Origin: a virus
Lineage: Duplodnaviria > Heunggongvirae > Uroviricota > Caudoviricetes
Length of the DNA: 4,282 bases
Reading direction: 5' to 3' (one strand)
IMG/VR virus record: IMGVR_UViG_2671180674_000006
Span: 1 to 4,282 of that record
The notes beneath the pieces were generated by a model that was not told the origin of the DNA, did no database searches, and saw only the letters and a program-made list of their open reading frames with translations. Position numbers and translations under genes: made by a program. Shown here in pieces: positions 1 through 4,282 of the stretch. The stretch's first letter is position 1, and every line of letters starts with the position of its first letter.

Positions 1-149
1 GAACGGCGGTGAAATGGGCACTGGTAGCGATACTGGTGCCTTTTTTCCTGGTGGGATGCGTCAGCCTGGATAAGGCGCGCCAGCTTTTCGATACAGCTTC
101 TCAGGTCTGTGAAATTGTCGACGGTGTTCGGCAGTGTATGCAGAACTGA
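1..149 (+). CDS. Partial ORF (frame 3), putative small lipoprotein; may begin upstream of the window or at GTG 9-11
   Basis: Frame 3 reads TAVKWALVAILVPFFLVGCVSLDKARQLFDTASQVCEIVDGVRQCMQN with stop TGA at 147-149. From GTG 9 it would be MKWALVAILVPFFLVGC...: a basic residue, a hydrophobic stretch and an LVGC lipobox-like motif. A second frame (frame 2) is also open from the window edge and ends at TAA 71-73, so two overlapping reading frames enter the window. No homolog recognised. Confidence 0.35.
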   Translation, partial: TAVKWALVAILVPFFLVGCVSLDKARQLFDTASQVCEIVDGVRQCMQN

Positions 150-320
150 TCGCCTGTAAGAGCAGAATATTTTGCTGAAAAATGAAGGATGCGCTGGCGT
201 CTGGAAAGCATGAAATTCTGTGTTTGTGGCTACTCAATAAAATAAATTCTTTCTGTCGCCGCGAATACTCAAATGTTGATCAGCGCCCGGTGCGGCGACG
301 GGCTTCGATATCAGGAGACG

Positions 321-620
321 ATGATGGAAAAAACAGAAAACAAACCGATTGTAATTGGTGCTGATGCTGCTCCGTTTAAGTTTGAGTTGTCTCAACTGGT
401 GGAGATGCGCATCAGTGATGAATGGGGGGAGGTTAAAGCCCGCGCGCAGTATGCGGATGGCGAAAACCAGTACTTGATCCACTACAAAGCAGCTGATGGT
501 CGCGCCACGATGGAGTGGTTTGGTGAGTCAATGCTGGAAGCAACGGAAGATGATCGCCATCCTGGCTGTCCGGTATTTGCTGGTATGAAATTGCCGGAAG
601 GTGCGGTTGTTACAGAGTAA
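321..620 (+). CDS. Hypothetical small acidic protein (about 98-99 aa) in the moron position between lysis region and cos
   Basis: ORF with GGAG at 314-317 followed by tandem ATGs at 321 and 324 (324 gives the better spacing), stop TAA 618-620. Product MMEKTENKPIVIGADAAPFKFELSQLVEMRISDEWGEVKARAQYADGENQYLIHYKAADGRATMEWFGESMLEATEDDRHPGCPVFAGMKLPEGAVVTE has no signal peptide or TM segment. The listed ORF start at 273 lacks an RBS. I do not recognise the family. Confidence 0.6.
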   Translation: MMEKTENKPIVIGADAAPFKFELSQLVEMRISDEWGEVKARAQYADGENQYLIHYKAADGRATMEWFGESMLEATEDDRHPGCPVFAGMKLPEGAVVTE

Positions 621-631
621 CAGACATTACA

Positions 632-654
632 GCAGCCCTTCAGCGAGGGGCTGC
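632..654. other. GC-rich hairpin 12 nt after the stop of the 321-620 ORF
   Basis: GCAGCCC (632-638) pairs with GGGCTGC (648-654) around a 9-nt loop. On the + strand it is followed by an A-rich run, not a U-run, so it is not a canonical intrinsic terminator for the upstream gene. Confidence 0.3.
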
Positions 655-662
655 GATAATGT

Positions 663-705
663 GAGAAATAAAAAACCGGTCACAGGGAACAGCTACACAG
701 AACCG
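663..705 (-). terminator. Possible minus-strand terminator-like element (copy A of a duplicated motif)
   Basis: AAATAAAAAACCGG at 666-679; read on the minus strand this is a short CCGG-containing stem followed by TTTTTTATTT. The stem is weak with a large loop. Confidence 0.2.
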
Positions 706-796
706 GCCGGCGAAGACCGCCAATACCACCCATGCATTGATGCAACATACTAATGACAATAGCTGCTCTTGATGTAAATGCAATGTTATGTATCGA

Positions 797-841
797 CGAA
801 AATAAAAAACCGGCAGGGGAAATCCATTGAAGATTTGCCGG
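797..841 (-). terminator. Possible minus-strand terminator-like element (copy B of a duplicated motif)
   Basis: AAATAAAAAACCGG at 800-813. CCGGC (810-814) pairs with GCCGG (837-841) and AAATC (820-824) with GATTT (832-836); on the minus strand the stem is followed directly by TTTTTTATTTT. Imperfect stem, so low confidence. Confidence 0.3.
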
Positions 842-985
842 TGGCAAAAGATGGCCATGCTTTCAACTTTAGTCGCAGGGTTACGGAGTGCAACTACGAA
901 TGCTGCCGGTATATGGCTGAATGGCGTTTCAATGATGTACGTCATCTTATCTGTAAATGTTAATGATAAATGCTCTCATTTGCGC

Positions 986-998
986 GGGTCCTTTCCGG
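986..998 (+). promoter_or_regulatory. cosQ-like / terminase large-subunit-side cos flank
   Basis: GGGTCCTTTCCGG matches, as I recall it, the segment of the lambda right end (…ACGGGTCCTTTCCGGTGATCCGACAGGTTACG) that precedes cosN and contains cosQ. It sits about 14-27 bp upstream of the proposed cosN core. Confidence 0.5.
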
Positions 999-1004
999 AA
1001 TCTG

Positions 1005-1034
1005 AAACACCGGGGGTCGTAGGACGCGCAAAAA
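1005..1034 (+). other. cosN region (terminase nicking site, cohesive-end core); exact nick positions not determinable from sequence
   Basis: The core GGGGGTCGTAGGA (1012-1024) is flanked by conserved lambda-like sequence: GGGTCCTTTCCGG upstream and CGCG…CGCTATTTACGAAAATTTTCAGG (1025-1059) downstream, which closely matches the lambda left-end CGCGGGTTTTCGCTATTTATGAAAATTTTCCGG. The core itself differs from lambda GGGCGGCGACCT and has partial dyad symmetry (GTCGTAGGAC). Confidence 0.55.
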
Positions 1035-1058
1035 CGCGCTATTTACGAAAATTTTCAG

Positions 1059-1078
1059 GGAACCATGTCCGGTTTCAC
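1059..1078 (-). repeat. cosB R-site candidate (R3-like), inverted orientation
   Basis: + strand GGAACCATGTCCGGTTTCAC; its reverse complement GTGAAACCGGACATGGTTCC carries the AACCGGACATG core shared with the two downstream copies. Confidence 0.55.
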
Positions 1079-1084
1079 TACTGG

Positions 1085-1118
1085 TTAACTATATGAAAAA
1101 TATAAAAACAAGCTTTTT
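1085..1118. promoter_or_regulatory. A-tract bend / IHF-like site between R-site candidates (I1-equivalent)
   Basis: Phased A5 (1096-1100), A5 (1104-1108) and T5 (1114-1118) tracts spaced 8-10 bp, positioned between the first and second R-site candidates as the IHF site I1 is in lambda cosB. Only a partial match to the IHF consensus WATCAANNNNTTR. Confidence 0.3.
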
Positions 1119-1135
1119 GTGAACCGGACATGTAC
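1119..1135 (+). repeat. cosB R-site candidate (R2-like), direct orientation
   Basis: GTGAACCGGACATGTAC; core AACCGGACATG at 1122-1132. Confidence 0.55.
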
Positions 1136-1149
1136 AAAAAACGAACATG

Positions 1150-1165
1150 CAAACCGGACATGAGC
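1150..1165 (+). repeat. cosB R-site candidate (R1-like), direct orientation
   Basis: CAAACCGGACATGAGC; core AACCGGACATG at 1152-1162. A degenerate partial copy GAACATG lies at 1143-1149. Confidence 0.55.
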
Positions 1166-1206
1166 GGTTTTCTGATTGTGAGGTGAGAGTTTTTGCGAGG
1201 TGAGTC

Positions 1207-1716
1207 GTGGCTACGCAGACTGAAGTTGCCAGGCATTTGAGTCTGACCGATCGCCAGCTTCGCAGATTGCAGAAATTGCCGGGTGCCCCGGTCTCGAATA
1301 AACGGGGGCATCATGACTTGGATGCCTGGCGTGATTTTTACATATCGTATCTGAGGAGAAGTAAAAATGATGTGTCTGATGGTGATAGCGAAGAAGACTA
1401 TGAAGAAAAATTACTTATCGCCAGATGGAAATTGACTGAAGAACAGGCAATAGCACAGCAATTAAAAAATCAGGTAACTGAAGGCAGACTTATTGATTCA
1501 GGGTTCTGCGTTTTCGCCCTCAGCAAACTGGCGATGGCATTGTCCAGTACGCTTGATTCCATTCCTTTATCCATGCAGCGACAGTTCCCGGATTTAACCC
1601 CGCGTCATATTGATTATCTGAAAACCCTTATCGCAAAGGGAGCGAATCAGTGTGCGCGGGCAGGGGATAAATTGCCGGAGTTACTCGATGAATATATCCG
1701 AACAACAGTTGAATAA
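1207..1716 (+). CDS. nu1: Terminase small subunit (lambda Nu1-like), GTG start
   Basis: GTG start at 1207 preceded by GAGGTGAG (1198-1205), stop TAA 1714-1716. The C-terminal half (…GFCVFALSKLAMALSSTLDSIPLSMQRQFPDLTPRHIDYLK…LPELLDEYI…) matches my recollection of lambda Nu1 (…AFCTFVLSRIAGEIASILDGLPLSVQRRFPELENRHVDFLK…IPGLLSEYIEQSG); the N-terminal third is divergent. Lies immediately downstream of cos and overlaps the start of the large subunit, as in lambda. Confidence 0.85.
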   Translation: MATQTEVARHLSLTDRQLRRLQKLPGAPVSNKRGHHDLDAWRDFYISYLRRSKNDVSDGDSEEDYEEKLLIARWKLTEEQAIAQQLKNQVTEGRLIDSGFCVFALSKLAMALSSTLDSIPLSMQRQFPDLTPRHIDYLKTLIAKGANQCARAGDKLPELLDEYIRTTVE

Positions 1717-3604
1717 TATGATGATCGCCGTCACAACCGCATTACAGCCACTAATAAGGGCATTGCCGGTCACGCCGGTTGAATGGGCTGATCAAAATTA
1801 TTATCTGCCTAAAGAATCGTCATACGGTGAAGGAGAGTGGAAAACCCTGCCGTTTCAGGTCGCCATTATGAACAGCATGGGGCACGACAGGATCCGCACT
1901 GTTAATCTGATTAAATCGGCGCGTGTGGGTTACACCAAAATGCTGCTGGGCGTGGTCGGGTATTTTATTGAGCATAAATCCCGTAACAGCCTGCTCTTCC
2001 AGCCGACAGATTCCGCAGCTGAAGATTTTATGAAAGCGCATGTGGAAGCAACGCTCCGGGATGTCCCCAGCCTTAAAGCGTTATCGCCATGGCTGGGCAG
2101 AAAACATCGGGACAACACACTCACCCTGAAGCGTTTTTCCTCCGGCGTGGGGTTCTGGTGCCTGGGGGGGGCCGCTGCTAAAAACTACCGTGAAAAATCT
2201 GTGGATGTGGTCTGCTATGACGAACTCTCCTCGTTTGAACCGGATGTGGAAAAAGAAGGCTCGCCGACGCTGCTTGGCGATAAACGTATCGAAGGCTCGG
2301 TATGGCCTAAATCCATACGCGGCTCAACGCCAAAAATTAAAGGCTCCTGCCAGATTGAGAAAGCGGCGAATGAATCTGCGCATTTCATGCGGTTTTATGT
2401 CCCTTGCCCTCATTGCGGGGAGGCCCAGTATCTGAAGTTTGGCGATGATGCGACGCCGTTTGGCCTGAAATGGGAGAAGGGTAAACCCGAAACGGTGTAT
2501 TACCTGTGTGAACATAATGGCTGTGTGATCCGCCAGTCGGAACTTGACCAGACCGACGGATGCTGGATTTGTGACAATACCGGGATGTGGACGCGTGACG
2601 GCCTGACATTTTACAGTGCCGGTGATGAGGAAATCCCGCCACCGCGCTCAATTTCGTACCACATCTGGACGGCATACAGCCCGTTCACCACCTGGGTACA
2701 GATTGTTTATGACTGGCTCGATGCACTGAAGGATCCGAATGGCGTCAAGACGTTCATTAACACCACGCTCGGGGAGCCCTATGAAGAGGCCGTGGCAGAA
2801 AAACTGAGCTTTGAGTTGTTGCTGGAAAAAGTCTGCCACTATGGCGCGCAGGTTCCCCTGCGGGTGGTTTACCTGACCGCAGGGATAGACTCCCAGAAAG
2901 ATCGCTATGAAATTTATGTTTGGGGCTGGGCTCCCGGCGAAGAAGCCTTTCTGATTGACAAGCAAATTATCATGGGGCGACCGGAGGACGAGGACACCCT
3001 TAAACGTGTTGATGCGGTGATCCGGAAAAAATACCGCCATGCTGACGGTACTGAAATTTCCATTTCCCGCGTCTGCTGGGATACCGGTGGTATCGACCAG
3101 GACATTGTGTATCAACGTTCCAGGAAACACGGCACTTTTTTTGTGCTTCCCATAAAAGGGGCATCGGTGTATGGCAAGCCGGTGATCACCATGCCCAAAA
3201 AGCGCAACCAGCGTGGTGTGTTTTTGTGTGAGGTGGGCTCCGATACCGTCAAGGAAATGCTGTACGCCCGTTTTGCCCTGCCGGTGGTTTCTGCCAGTGA
3301 AGCAGCCCCGTATATCTTCCGTTTTCCGGATAACCCGGACATTTTTTCGGAAGAAGAGGCGCGTCAAATCGTAGCGGAAGAACTGGTGGAAAAGGTGGTT
3401 AACGGCAGGGTGAAACTGCTGTGGGATAAAAAAGGGCGACGCAACGAAGCCCTCGACTGCCTGGTATATGCTTATGCCGCCCTGCGCGTTTCGGTACAGC
3501 GGTGGCAACTGGACCTTGAAGCGCTGGCGAGGGCACGAAGAGATGAGCAGGATGAGGATGATATGAGCATGGAAGAGATCGCGGCTGCACTGAGTGGAGG
3601 ATAA
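1688..3604 (+). CDS. A: Terminase large subunit (lambda gpA-like), ATPase/endonuclease
   Basis: Start chosen at ATG 1688 (MNISEQQL…, GGAG at 1677-1680) rather than the listed GTG 1652, because lambda gpA begins MNIS…. Long collinear similarity to lambda gpA as I recall it: VEWAD-NYYLPKES, KSARVGY-KMLLGV, FWCLGG-AAKNYREKSVDV, GSPT-LGDKRIEGSVWPKSIRGSTPK, HFMRF-V-CPHCGE-QYLKFGD, IWTAYSPFTTWVQIV, YLTAGIDSQ-DRYE--VWGW-PGEE, IPIKGASVYGKPV, WDKKGRRNEALDC. Stop TAA 3602-3604. Confidence 0.95.
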   Translation: MNISEQQLNNMMIAVTTALQPLIRALPVTPVEWADQNYYLPKESSYGEGEWKTLPFQVAIMNSMGHDRIRTVNLIKSARVGYTKMLLGVVGYFIEHKSRNSLLFQPTDSAAEDFMKAHVEATLRDVPSLKALSPWLGRKHRDNTLTLKRFSSGVGFWCLGGAAAKNYREKSVDVVCYDELSSFEPDVEKEGSPTLLGDKRIEGSVWPKSIRGSTPKIKGSCQIEKAANESAHFMRFYVPCPHCGEAQYLKFGDDATPFGLKWEKGKPETVYYLCEHNGCVIRQSELDQTDGCWICDNTGMWTRDGLTFYSAGDEEIPPPRSISYHIWTAYSPFTTWVQIVYDWLDALKDPNGVKTFINTTLGEPYEEAVAEKLSFELLLEKVCHYGAQVPLRVVYLTAGIDSQKDRYEIYVWGWAPGEEAFLIDKQIIMGRPEDEDTLKRVDAVIRKKYRHADGTEISISRVCWDTGGIDQDIVYQRSRKHGTFFVLPIKGASVYGKPVITMPKKRNQRGVFLCEVGSDTVKEMLYARFALPVVSASEAAPYIFRFPDNPDIFSEEEARQIVAEELVEKVVNGRVKLLWDKKGRRNEALDCLVYAYAALRVSVQRWQLDLEALARARRDEQDEDDMSMEEIAAALSGG

Positions 3605-3607
3605 AGG

Positions 3608-3817
3608 ATGGTTTATACGCATGAAATGCTTTGCGAGGCGCGTCGGGCATTACATGAACTGATGATCGGGCGTGCTGTGGTTTCTGTCGGCAGGAACGGA
3701 CGGCAGGTTCAGTATTCGCGTGCGACGATTGGTGAACTGCGGCAATACATTGAAGAGCTGGAGAGTGCGCTGGGCGTGTCCGGACGGCGTCGCGGTCCGG
3801 TGGGAGTGAGACTGTGA
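3608..3817 (+). CDS. W: Head-tail joining / head completion protein (lambda gpW-like)
   Basis: ATG 3608 with GGAGG at 3595-3599, 3 nt after the large-subunit stop; stop TGA 3815-3817. The 69-aa product MVYTHEMLCEARRALHELMIGRAVVSVGRNGRQVQYSRATIGELRQYIEELESALGVSGRRRGPVGVRL resembles lambda gpW as I recall it (…[27 protein letters not shown]…YIAELE…RRRGPAGFYV) and is in the expected position. Confidence 0.9.
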   Translation: MVYTHEMLCEARRALHELMIGRAVVSVGRNGRQVQYSRATIGELRQYIEELESALGVSGRRRGPVGVRL

Positions 3818-4282
3818 ATGTGGAGTTGATAGATGTTCACGGACAGCCCCTGCGACAGAGTATGGGATATTCCGGTGGCGGCTCCGGATTTGGTGGGCAG
3901 CTTGCGGAATGGTTACCTGCGCCGGAAAGTGCCGATGTGGCGCTGCTGCCTTCCATTCAGTTGGGTAATGCCCGTGCGGATGATCTGGTCCGTAATAATG
4001 GCATTGCCGCGAATGCTGTGGAAATTCATAAAGACCATATCGTCGGGCATATGTTTCGTCTGAGTTATCGCCCCAACTGGCGCTGGCTGGGGATGTCGGA
4101 AGCAGATTCACATGCTTTTATTGAAGATGTTGAGGCGGCGTGGATGGAATACTGCGATCCGGTGTTTGGTACGATGGATGTGGAAGGGCGTCGTTCGTTT
4201 ACCGAATTCATTCGTGAAGGGGTGGGTGTCCATACTTTTAATGGAGAAATATTTGTCCAGCCTGTATGGGATGCGGAATCCA
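3814..4282 (+). CDS. B: Portal protein (lambda gpB-like), 5' partial, continues past window end
   Basis: The frame opens after an in-frame TGA at 3733-3735 and the first start codon is GTG 3814 (GGGAG at 3802-3806), overlapping the W stop as GTGA; GTG 3820 and TTG 3826 are alternatives. Translation …GYSGGGSGFGGQLAEWLPAPESADVALLPSIQLGNARADDLVRNNGIAANAVEIHKDHIVGHMFRLSYRPNWRWLG…FNGEIFVQPVWD… matches my recollection of the lambda gpB N-terminus (GYHGGGSGFGGQLRSWNPPSESVDAALLP…GNARADDLVRNNGYAANAIQLHQDHIVG…). Confidence 0.9.
   Translation, partial: MNVELIDVHGQPLRQSMGYSGGGSGFGGQLAEWLPAPESADVALLPSIQLGNARADDLVRNNGIAANAVEIHKDHIVGHMFRLSYRPNWRWLGMSEADSHAFIEDVEAAWMEYCDPVFGTMDVEGRRSFTEFIREGVGVHTFNGEIFVQPVWDAES

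Follow-up and report, generated by a model that had tools for sequence, protein, structure and literature searches.

Introduction

Phage lambda carries bor in the interval between its lysis genes and cos. In T4-type phages, PeSLs join a strong early promoter to a terminating stem-loop (Arbiol et al. 2010, PMC2839356). On the host side, the C-terminal tail of HspQ, including K96, governs the Lon and ClpS activities of the protein; acetylation of K96 turns HspQ from a Lon activator and substrate into a ClpS inhibitor (PMC6719616).

In this study, a 4,282-nt stretch of a Caudoviricetes genome (IMG/VR record IMGVR_UViG_2671180674_000006, positions 1 to 4,282; hereafter the window) was analyzed around a small open reading frame (ORF) near its left end. 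A first-pass annotation had described this ORF as an uncharacterized small acidic protein gene in the moron slot between the lysis cassette and cos, where genes often serve lysogenic conversion or host interaction. The observation is confirmed here, and the interpretation is partly supported.

Results

The window and its neighboring genes

The window comes from the late region of a lambdoid prophage. Its whole-length identity to any complete Escherichia coli genome is at most about 95%, and positions 1-661 share 96.5% nucleotide identity with the Stx2e phage phiP27. At the left end, ORF 9-149 on the plus strand, taken from the ORF list, encodes a probable Rz1-type outer-membrane spanin lipoprotein (lipobox LVGC read from the translation; phrog_7528, E 1e-25); its position and the full-length 60-aa form in the related locus L079 suggest that it is a spanin at the end of the lysis cassette. 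The small ORF, here called the cargo gene, is followed by about 590 bp in which no gene is convincing. The packaging and head module then begins with a Nu1-type small terminase gene (1207-1716, plus strand; Pfam Phage_Nu1, E 4e-20; phrog_57 and phrog_1790, 'terminase small subunit'), and is continued by a gpA-type large terminase gene (start about 1688, end 3604), a gpW-like ORF and the first part of a portal gene. The lysis-to-cos position given earlier is therefore correct. An eight-G run at 2164-2171 lies within the large-terminase frame, which is intact here; this is a possible slippage-prone site.

Several features occupy the interval before the Nu1 gene. Just 5' of it, CATGTCCGGTT occurs three times (one inverted and two direct copies, at 1064-1075, 1122-1132, and 1152-1162), and these copies resemble the R-type sites of cosB to which the small terminase binds. 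A tandem repeat, TTGTGAGGTGAG/TTGCGAGGTGAG, is found at 1176-1204, before the Nu1 start. Positions 958-1075 are kept across many loci, as cos would be expected to be. Positions 662-957, on the other hand, are missing in several related prophages, in which 661 is joined straight to about 958. This segment holds a 14-nt direct repeat, AAATAAAAAACCGG (666-679 and 800-813), each copy of which reads on the minus strand as a T-run after a possible stem sequence; the copy at 800-850 has a plausible minus-strand terminator fold, and the other folds unconvincingly (z +0.45). No convincing minus-strand gene was found in 662-957, and ORF 640-945 on that strand has no Pfam or PHROG match. Bor, expected as a minus-strand lipoprotein of about 97 aa, is absent, as had been reported: this ORF has no Pfam match, including Bor, and no lipobox was seen in the other minus-strand ORFs of the interval inspected by eye.

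Coding evidence and properties of the product

The cargo gene is read in frame from an ATG at 321 or 324 to a TAA at 618-620, within a maximal ORF of 273-620. A Shine-Dalgarno AGGAG read from the sequence at 313-317 on the plus strand stands 3 nt before the first ATG and 6 nt before the second. ATG 324 is the likelier start (324-620, plus strand, 98 aa; 99 aa from ATG 321) because of its 6-nt spacing, because most database entries begin with MEKTENK and have 98 aa, and because the 321 codon is ATA in locus L087. The string GGAGA(C/T)GAT is kept in loci whose upstream sequence is otherwise unrelated. In phiP27, positions 20985-21332 of NC_003356.1 correspond to window 273-620, and the RefSeq start of its homolog L33, at the upstream ATG, gives 115 aa. 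That start is not conserved, since similarity to the window resumes only at 308 in loci bearing an upstream insert; it lies outside the conserved cassette and is probably 17 codons too early.

The predicted protein of about 11 kDa has a pI of 4.62, with 19 D+E against 10 K+R residues. Its best 19-residue Kyte-Doolittle mean is 0.9, so that a hydrophobic segment is absent, and neither hydropathy nor sequence revealed a signal peptide, lipobox, or transmembrane segment in the 98 residues, in line with the first-pass annotation. The product is soluble and cytoplasmic. Pairwise dN/dS was 0.05-0.16 against the homologs of phiP27, Enterobacter, Edwardsiella, Yersinia, and Salmonella (0.055 for phiP27; 0.10-0.16 for the Enterobacter, Edwardsiella, and Salmonella homologs, where synonymous sites are saturated). 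These low values, together with a frame that is kept across genera far beyond chance, indicate a protein-coding gene under purifying selection. The ORF is a real gene, and the reasonable ribosome binding site and coding appearance noted for it are borne out. Its base composition is not deviant (49.5% GC, compared with 50.6% for the window).

A large family without a described function

Homology searches placed the protein in a family that has been seen often and never characterized. Its match to phrog_1935 is full-length (E 6.1e-60; residues 2-99 aligned with positions 1-98 of a 116-position profile), and that to phrog_8618 is confined to the core; both profiles are labelled 'unknown function'. 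The phiP27 protein L33 (NP_543085.1), with 98% amino-acid identity, is listed in RefSeq as 'hypothetical protein; unknown'. A total of 109 close homologs, all unnamed, come from E. coli, Shigella, Salmonella, Yersinia, Edwardsiella, Enterobacter, and Klebsiella. The gene is present in 164 of 5,426 complete E. coli genomes, in up to five copies per genome and always as 'hypothetical protein'. Among 108 family members, 73% have a pI below 6.

A core of about 58 aa defines a wider superfamily. A profile search of 1.84 billion cluster representatives returned 716 clusters at E<=1e-3, most of which are stand-alone proteins of about 60 aa that consist of the core alone. The core consensus is FKFxLxQxVxIxxSGExGxVxGRAEYxxxxNxYLVRYKAADGRAVExWWxESxL, and the enterobacterial subfamily adds a conserved tail, DDxHPGCPVF...LPEGA. 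The window protein has every invariant or near-invariant column of a 34-sequence family alignment, including the motif F-x-F-x-L-x-Q-x-V...S-(D/G)-E-x-G-x-V...R-A-x-Y...N-x-Y...Y-K-A-A-D-G...W-(F/W)-x-E-S-x-L and the tail DDxHPGCP...LPEGA. The conserved HPGCP is unlikely to bind a metal, for the His is often Tyr and only one Cys is conserved.

In the superfamily (P0110-P0250; L138 3599-4189), the core is duplicated in tandem in some members. In others it is joined to zinc fingers of the DnaJ type (CxxCxGxG), to H1-like AKKA-rich or poly-acidic tails, or to Lcl_C, RyR, or Tudor-knot-like domains; none of these partners points clearly to a function. An apparent fusion to a reverse transcriptase (L115) was rejected as a frame artefact, the family match being out of frame with the 541-aa ORF in GC-rich DNA. 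A common E. coli variant of 130-131 aa has about 33 extra C-terminal residues (ELQPGEMFVMTDIIDGKPQYSRIEMNGKSARLIRE; clusters of 260, 65, 39, and 34 sequences). It arises from an indel of about 100 bp at window 609-615 (L045 4286-4388), and the hairpin described below is kept after the new stop.

Scans of the window protein against Pfam, NCBIfam, and PADLOC gave no match (E<=1 for Pfam and PADLOC), and the 108 family members showed scattered sub-threshold matches to Pfam and NCBIfam, with no model covering the domain. PDB sequence searches with the protein and two profiles returned nothing significant, and a literature search found nothing on the phrog_1935/L33 family. The description of a genuine, uncharacterized small acidic protein gene therefore holds, and the gene is one more member of a large, often-seen, uncharacterized phage protein family.

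An accessory slot and its terminal hairpin

Comparison of related loci delimited a cassette around the gene. In about 10 of them an insert of about 620 bp separates window 228 from position 308, the left mosaic boundary, at which the similarity begins again. This insert (L079 3364-3985) contains two small ORFs (about 75 aa and about 71-81 aa) and ends in an intrinsic terminator. On the right, similarity to the window breaks off in most related loci exactly at 661/662, where a hairpin ends. Both the presence of the gene and its neighbors are polymorphic among related prophages, with mosaic boundaries at 308 and 661/662; other small ORFs are found in the interval in some, and among 47 other phage loci at least 25 unrelated last-gene clusters were found just before the same hairpin. 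The spanin-to-packaging interval is thus a variable accessory slot, as had been proposed, and the window gene is one of many alternative cargos. In phiP27 the upstream neighbors and the downstream hairpin are those of the window; further downstream, phiP27 has an HNH gene and an HK97-type terminase in the order HNH-cos-terS, whereas the window has Nu1/gpA.

The hairpin, identified by folding, conservation, and covariation, occupies 39 nt at 624-662 on the plus strand and begins 4 nt after the stop codon (dG -24.8 kcal/mol, z -7.7; none of 200 shuffles was as stable). Its layout is ACATTAC-AG-[10-bp stem, 3-nt loop]-CG-ATAATGT. The same hairpin stands behind the homologs in phiP27, in P2-like Enterobacter prophages, in an Edwardsiella lambdoid prophage, and in others. 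Its sequence is kept in the outer arms CATTAC/GATAATG and the CA/GA internal loop, and the inner stem of 9-10 bp varies by compensatory changes. In 48 distinct 37-mers, 8 of 16 pairs showed double-sided changes, a degree of covariation that no shuffle reached, and 96.9% of cells were paired, compared with 37-52% when the partner was slid; the outer arms of these sequences were fixed by the search pattern.

That pattern, the exact arms CATTACAG-N15-30-CGATAATG, was found in at least 120 IMG/VR stretches. The canonical fold was present in 66 of the 82 matches read, and a stop triplet in any frame lay within about 15 nt upstream in 61 of these 66. Loci bearing the hairpin are the window, L001, L002, L006, L173-L192, and L203-L282; wherever genes were recognizable, the hairpin was on the sense strand, 3' of holin, endolysin, and spanin genes and 5' of HNH or terS. 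Its distance from the spanin stop is sometimes 1-3 nt and sometimes up to about 900 bp. The complete phiP27 genome, the one checked, has a single copy. In E. coli, the sequence variant of the window occurs at 437 places in 303 of 5,426 genomes and is never annotated there. Nor is the hairpin annotated in 23 GenBank phage records; Rfam gave no match on the whole window (E<=1), and the interval from the lysis genes to nohD in DLP12 of K-12 has no copy. In temperate enterobacterial phages, this hairpin delimits the cargo slot in which the lysis cassette ends. The new finding here is a physical delimiter of the accessory slot that follows the lysis genes, a structured hairpin without annotation or an Rfam match.

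The strand bias of the hairpin, and the stop codons that immediately precede it, favor an RNA-level role as a processing or stabilizing signal. The mosaic breakpoints at the same place suggest that it may also be a recombination joint. Most copies lack a U-tract, which makes a canonical terminator improbable: the window copy has none, and a T-run follows the hairpin in only a few loci. Three other roles were considered and set aside. The arms contain a -10-like GATAAT, but the only -35-like hexamer is 22 nt away, which argues against a promoter; a cos-related site is ruled out because the hairpin lies far from cos in P2-like phages; and a binding site for the protein itself, in the simple sense, does not fit with the observation that only 2 of the 82 matches read follow the phrog_1935/L33 family. 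Should the hairpin be a site of RNA processing or a joint for recombination, it would go some way to explain the exchange of cargo genes among temperate enterobacterial phages, and would be an easy marker for finding such genes.

Expression and the moron interpretation

A promoter scan of window 1-1300 found no sigma-70-like promoter. In loci of the L079/L087 type, a canonical intrinsic terminator (AGCCCCGCAAATGCGGGGCTTTTTT) abuts the ribosome binding site of the gene, about 15 nt before the ATG, and this leaves no room for a promoter. In P2-like prophages, the ATG overlaps the spanin stop codon, and the gene is translationally coupled to the spanin gene. The missing promoter, the abutting terminator, and the translational coupling together point to late read-through expression rather than lysogenic conversion; most likely, the gene is transcribed by read-through as the last cistron of the antiterminated late lysis transcript.

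This bears directly on the possibility that the gene is a moron for lysogenic conversion, one that the prophage expresses to alter a host phenotype such as serum resistance or phage sensitivity. The gene shares its interval with lambda bor, is present or absent among relatives, and has a strong hairpin downstream, all of which would suit a moron. But it has no promoter, stands about 15 nt behind a terminator in some loci and overlaps the spanin stop in others, its hairpin lacks a U-tract, its GC content is like that of the flanks, and its product has no signal peptide, lipobox, or PADLOC match. Such a role is accordingly improbable. The lysogenic-conversion reading of the first-pass annotation is weakened by the same evidence, and the gene does not fit the definition of a classical moron.

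Position relative to lysis and packaging genes

A survey of genomic context in other prophages, as the first-pass annotation had advised, found the gene nearly always after spanins in lambdoid and P2-like phages. All of the 80 close viral loci have it downstream of the same Rz/Rz1 region, with variable downstream neighbors. In about 17 of 20 diverse loci (60-100% identity to an Enterobacter homolog), the nearest identifiable upstream gene encodes a spanin from one of three families with no relation to each other (DUF2514; DUF2570 with LysC; Rz Phage_lysis). The diverse loci comprise lambdoid/HK97-like phages, in which the gene precedes HNH or terS, and P2-like phages, in which it precedes tail gene R, far from cos. 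In one of them it follows a methylase gene. HP1-like Peduoviridae are an exception, with a short form between terS (gpM) and gpL. The family is thus not specific to the lysis-to-cos interval.

Positions are scattered in the wider superfamily (76 non-redundant loci, mostly from GC-rich hosts), where the neighbors include DNA polymerase, DUF2800, DUF2303, RdgC, ssDNA-binding proteins, methylases, repressors, HNH nucleases, terminases, and portals. In Burkholderia phage Bcep176, for example, tiny early genes surround a family member.

Standing last in the lysis cassette, the gene could encode a cytoplasmic lysis accessory or regulator that tunes, for example, holin or spanin timing in the manner of T4 RIII, a soluble antiholin cofactor. 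The place of the gene downstream of spanins from three unrelated families, directly so in most loci and in lambdoid and P2-like phages alike, its coupling to the spanin gene in the latter, and its enclosure in a unit closed by the lysis-cassette hairpin are what this explanation would predict. However, a position shared by at least 25 unrelated genes is not in itself a sign of a lysis function. The gene is also missing from most related prophages, HP1-like phages keep it away from the lysis genes, and distant relatives are found in replication and early regions; the protein itself has no membrane segment, signal, lipobox, or muralytic domain according to hydropathy and Pfam. A lysis role is therefore unlikely. 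Because unrelated genes share the slot and distant relatives lie elsewhere, the near-constant position after the spanin is better understood as that of a permissive, hairpin-closed slot.

A non-essential accessory protein of DNA packaging or head completion would account for a different set of positions: just 5' of cos and terS in lambdoid phages, before HNH-cos-terS in phiP27, between terS and gpL in HP1-like phages, and next to gpA-type large terminase, HNH, or portal genes in several distant members. Against this, P2-like prophages place the gene before gene R, most distant members are not near packaging genes, and the gene occurs in about 3% of E. coli genomes, though more than 1,800 records carry related terminase DNA. 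We regard a packaging role as quite unlikely.

Predicted fold and relation to HspQ

An AlphaFold2 model built from the 34-sequence alignment (pLDDT 84) has six strands and supports an acidic SH3/Tudor-like beta-barrel with an HspQ-like fold. HspQ (YccV-like; PDB 5ycq) was the best structural match by two methods, and the model shares the fold of this solved structure; Foldseek ranked it first (E 3.7e-3), with the next match at 5.4e-2. The absence of a recognizable motif noted in the first-pass annotation stands for Pfam, but the protein is a full-length phrog_1935 member with a recognizable predicted fold.

Profile comparison gave a mixed picture. With hhalign, the 108-member family profile matched an 18-sequence, low-diversity HspQ alignment at 78.6% (E 1.7e-5), and a single E. 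coli HspQ sequence at 50%; the Pfam assignment of the latter sequence and its identity to database HspQ were confirmed. The hhalign alignment to HspQ covers the whole barrel and the following D-(D/E)-x-H-P segment, and ends at about HspQ residue 89. HMM-to-sequence searches, including HMM-to-PDB, do not link the family to HspQ. Pfam YccV-like (PF08755) gave no match to the protein at E<=1 and is not listed among the families of the 108 members. A search of the BFVD viral structures returned weak matches only, to other uncharacterized small barrels. Homology to HspQ is plausible but unproven, and likeness of fold is no basis for family membership. The 716-cluster family, for which Pfam and NCBIfam have no model, can now be given a fold, the SH3/Tudor-like barrel, with HspQ as its nearest characterized relative.

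The other fold neighbors include NusG/Spt5 KOW domains, UvrD/PcrA Tudor domains, and PWWP and chromo barrels. UvrD/PcrA Tudor domains bind RNA polymerase, and YccV was first described as a binder of hemimethylated DNA. These neighbors raise the possibility that the barrel acts on (hemimethylated) DNA, RNA, or the transcription machinery, which the H1-like AKKA-rich basic tails of some superfamily members, and the DNA methylases, HNH nucleases, ssDNA-binding proteins, and polymerases adjoining distant members, would also suit. The acidity of the window protein, shared by most of its family, speaks against nucleic-acid binding; no basic surface is evident from the sequence, and other members have poly-acidic tails. 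Tudor-knot, chromo-barrel, and KOW barrels show no significant sequence relationship to the protein (E>=0.03). We consider this explanation doubtful.

Discussion

For a small, acidic, soluble barrel found at early as well as late accessory sites, binding to a host macromolecule is the most economical explanation. Superfamily members in early or replication regions as well as late accessory positions fit a host-directed function that is not tied to one phage process, and the acidity of the protein suggests a protein partner rather than DNA. We therefore propose that the cargo gene would be co-transcribed late, as the last cistron after the spanin genes, and that its HspQ-like barrel may bind a host protein stoichiometrically late in infection. 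The Lon/ClpS proteolysis system is the leading single candidate for this target, a speculative and weakly supported one, since HspQ, the only characterized fold relative, modulates the AAA+ protease Lon and the adaptor ClpS. The probability of this reading as a whole is put at roughly 30%; a structural, lytic, or lysogenic-conversion role is less likely. Points against it are that the K96 tail and the beta2-beta3 insert of HspQ are missing, and that the position after the spanin could reflect a lysis role after all.

A more specific form of the proposal is a long shot. In it, a phage HspQ mimic would dock on Lon or ClpS late in infection, encoded in a hairpin-closed cassette (CAUUACAG-stem-CGAUAAUG) whose orientation-specific hairpin would serve as both an mRNA processing or stabilizing signal and a recombination joint. 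If the mimic is real, phage proteins may be stabilized, or abortive infection by Lon-dependent toxin-antitoxin systems may be blocked. If the cassette is real, the hairpin joint may shuffle cargo genes between lambdoid and P2-like phages.

Three described systems offer a comparison. Like lambda bor and the HK97/HK022-type morons, the window gene is accessory, lies in the lysis-to-cos interval, and is present or absent among relatives. Unlike them, it shares the coding strand of the late operon and lacks its own promoter; its product is not a lipoprotein and is unrelated to Bor. The closest analogs of the hairpin are the PeSL cassettes of T4-type phages, which are likewise short conserved intergenic stem-loops flanking non-essential ORFs in a hyperplastic region, at recombination boundaries (PMC2839356). 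The window hairpin differs from PeSLs in having neither a promoter nor a U-tract and in its location at the lysis-cassette end of temperate enterobacterial phages.

HspQ, finally, resembles the window protein in size (105 and 98 aa), pI (4.5 and 4.6), and cytoplasmic location. It differs in its beta2-beta3 insert of about 15 residues, which the window protein lacks, and in its C-terminal tail with K96 (LAQTIRKQLQAPRLRN), which has no counterpart here; the family-specific tail HPGCPVF...LPEGA stands in its place. HspQ is encoded by a host heat-shock gene, whereas the gene described here is phage-borne and most likely expressed late.
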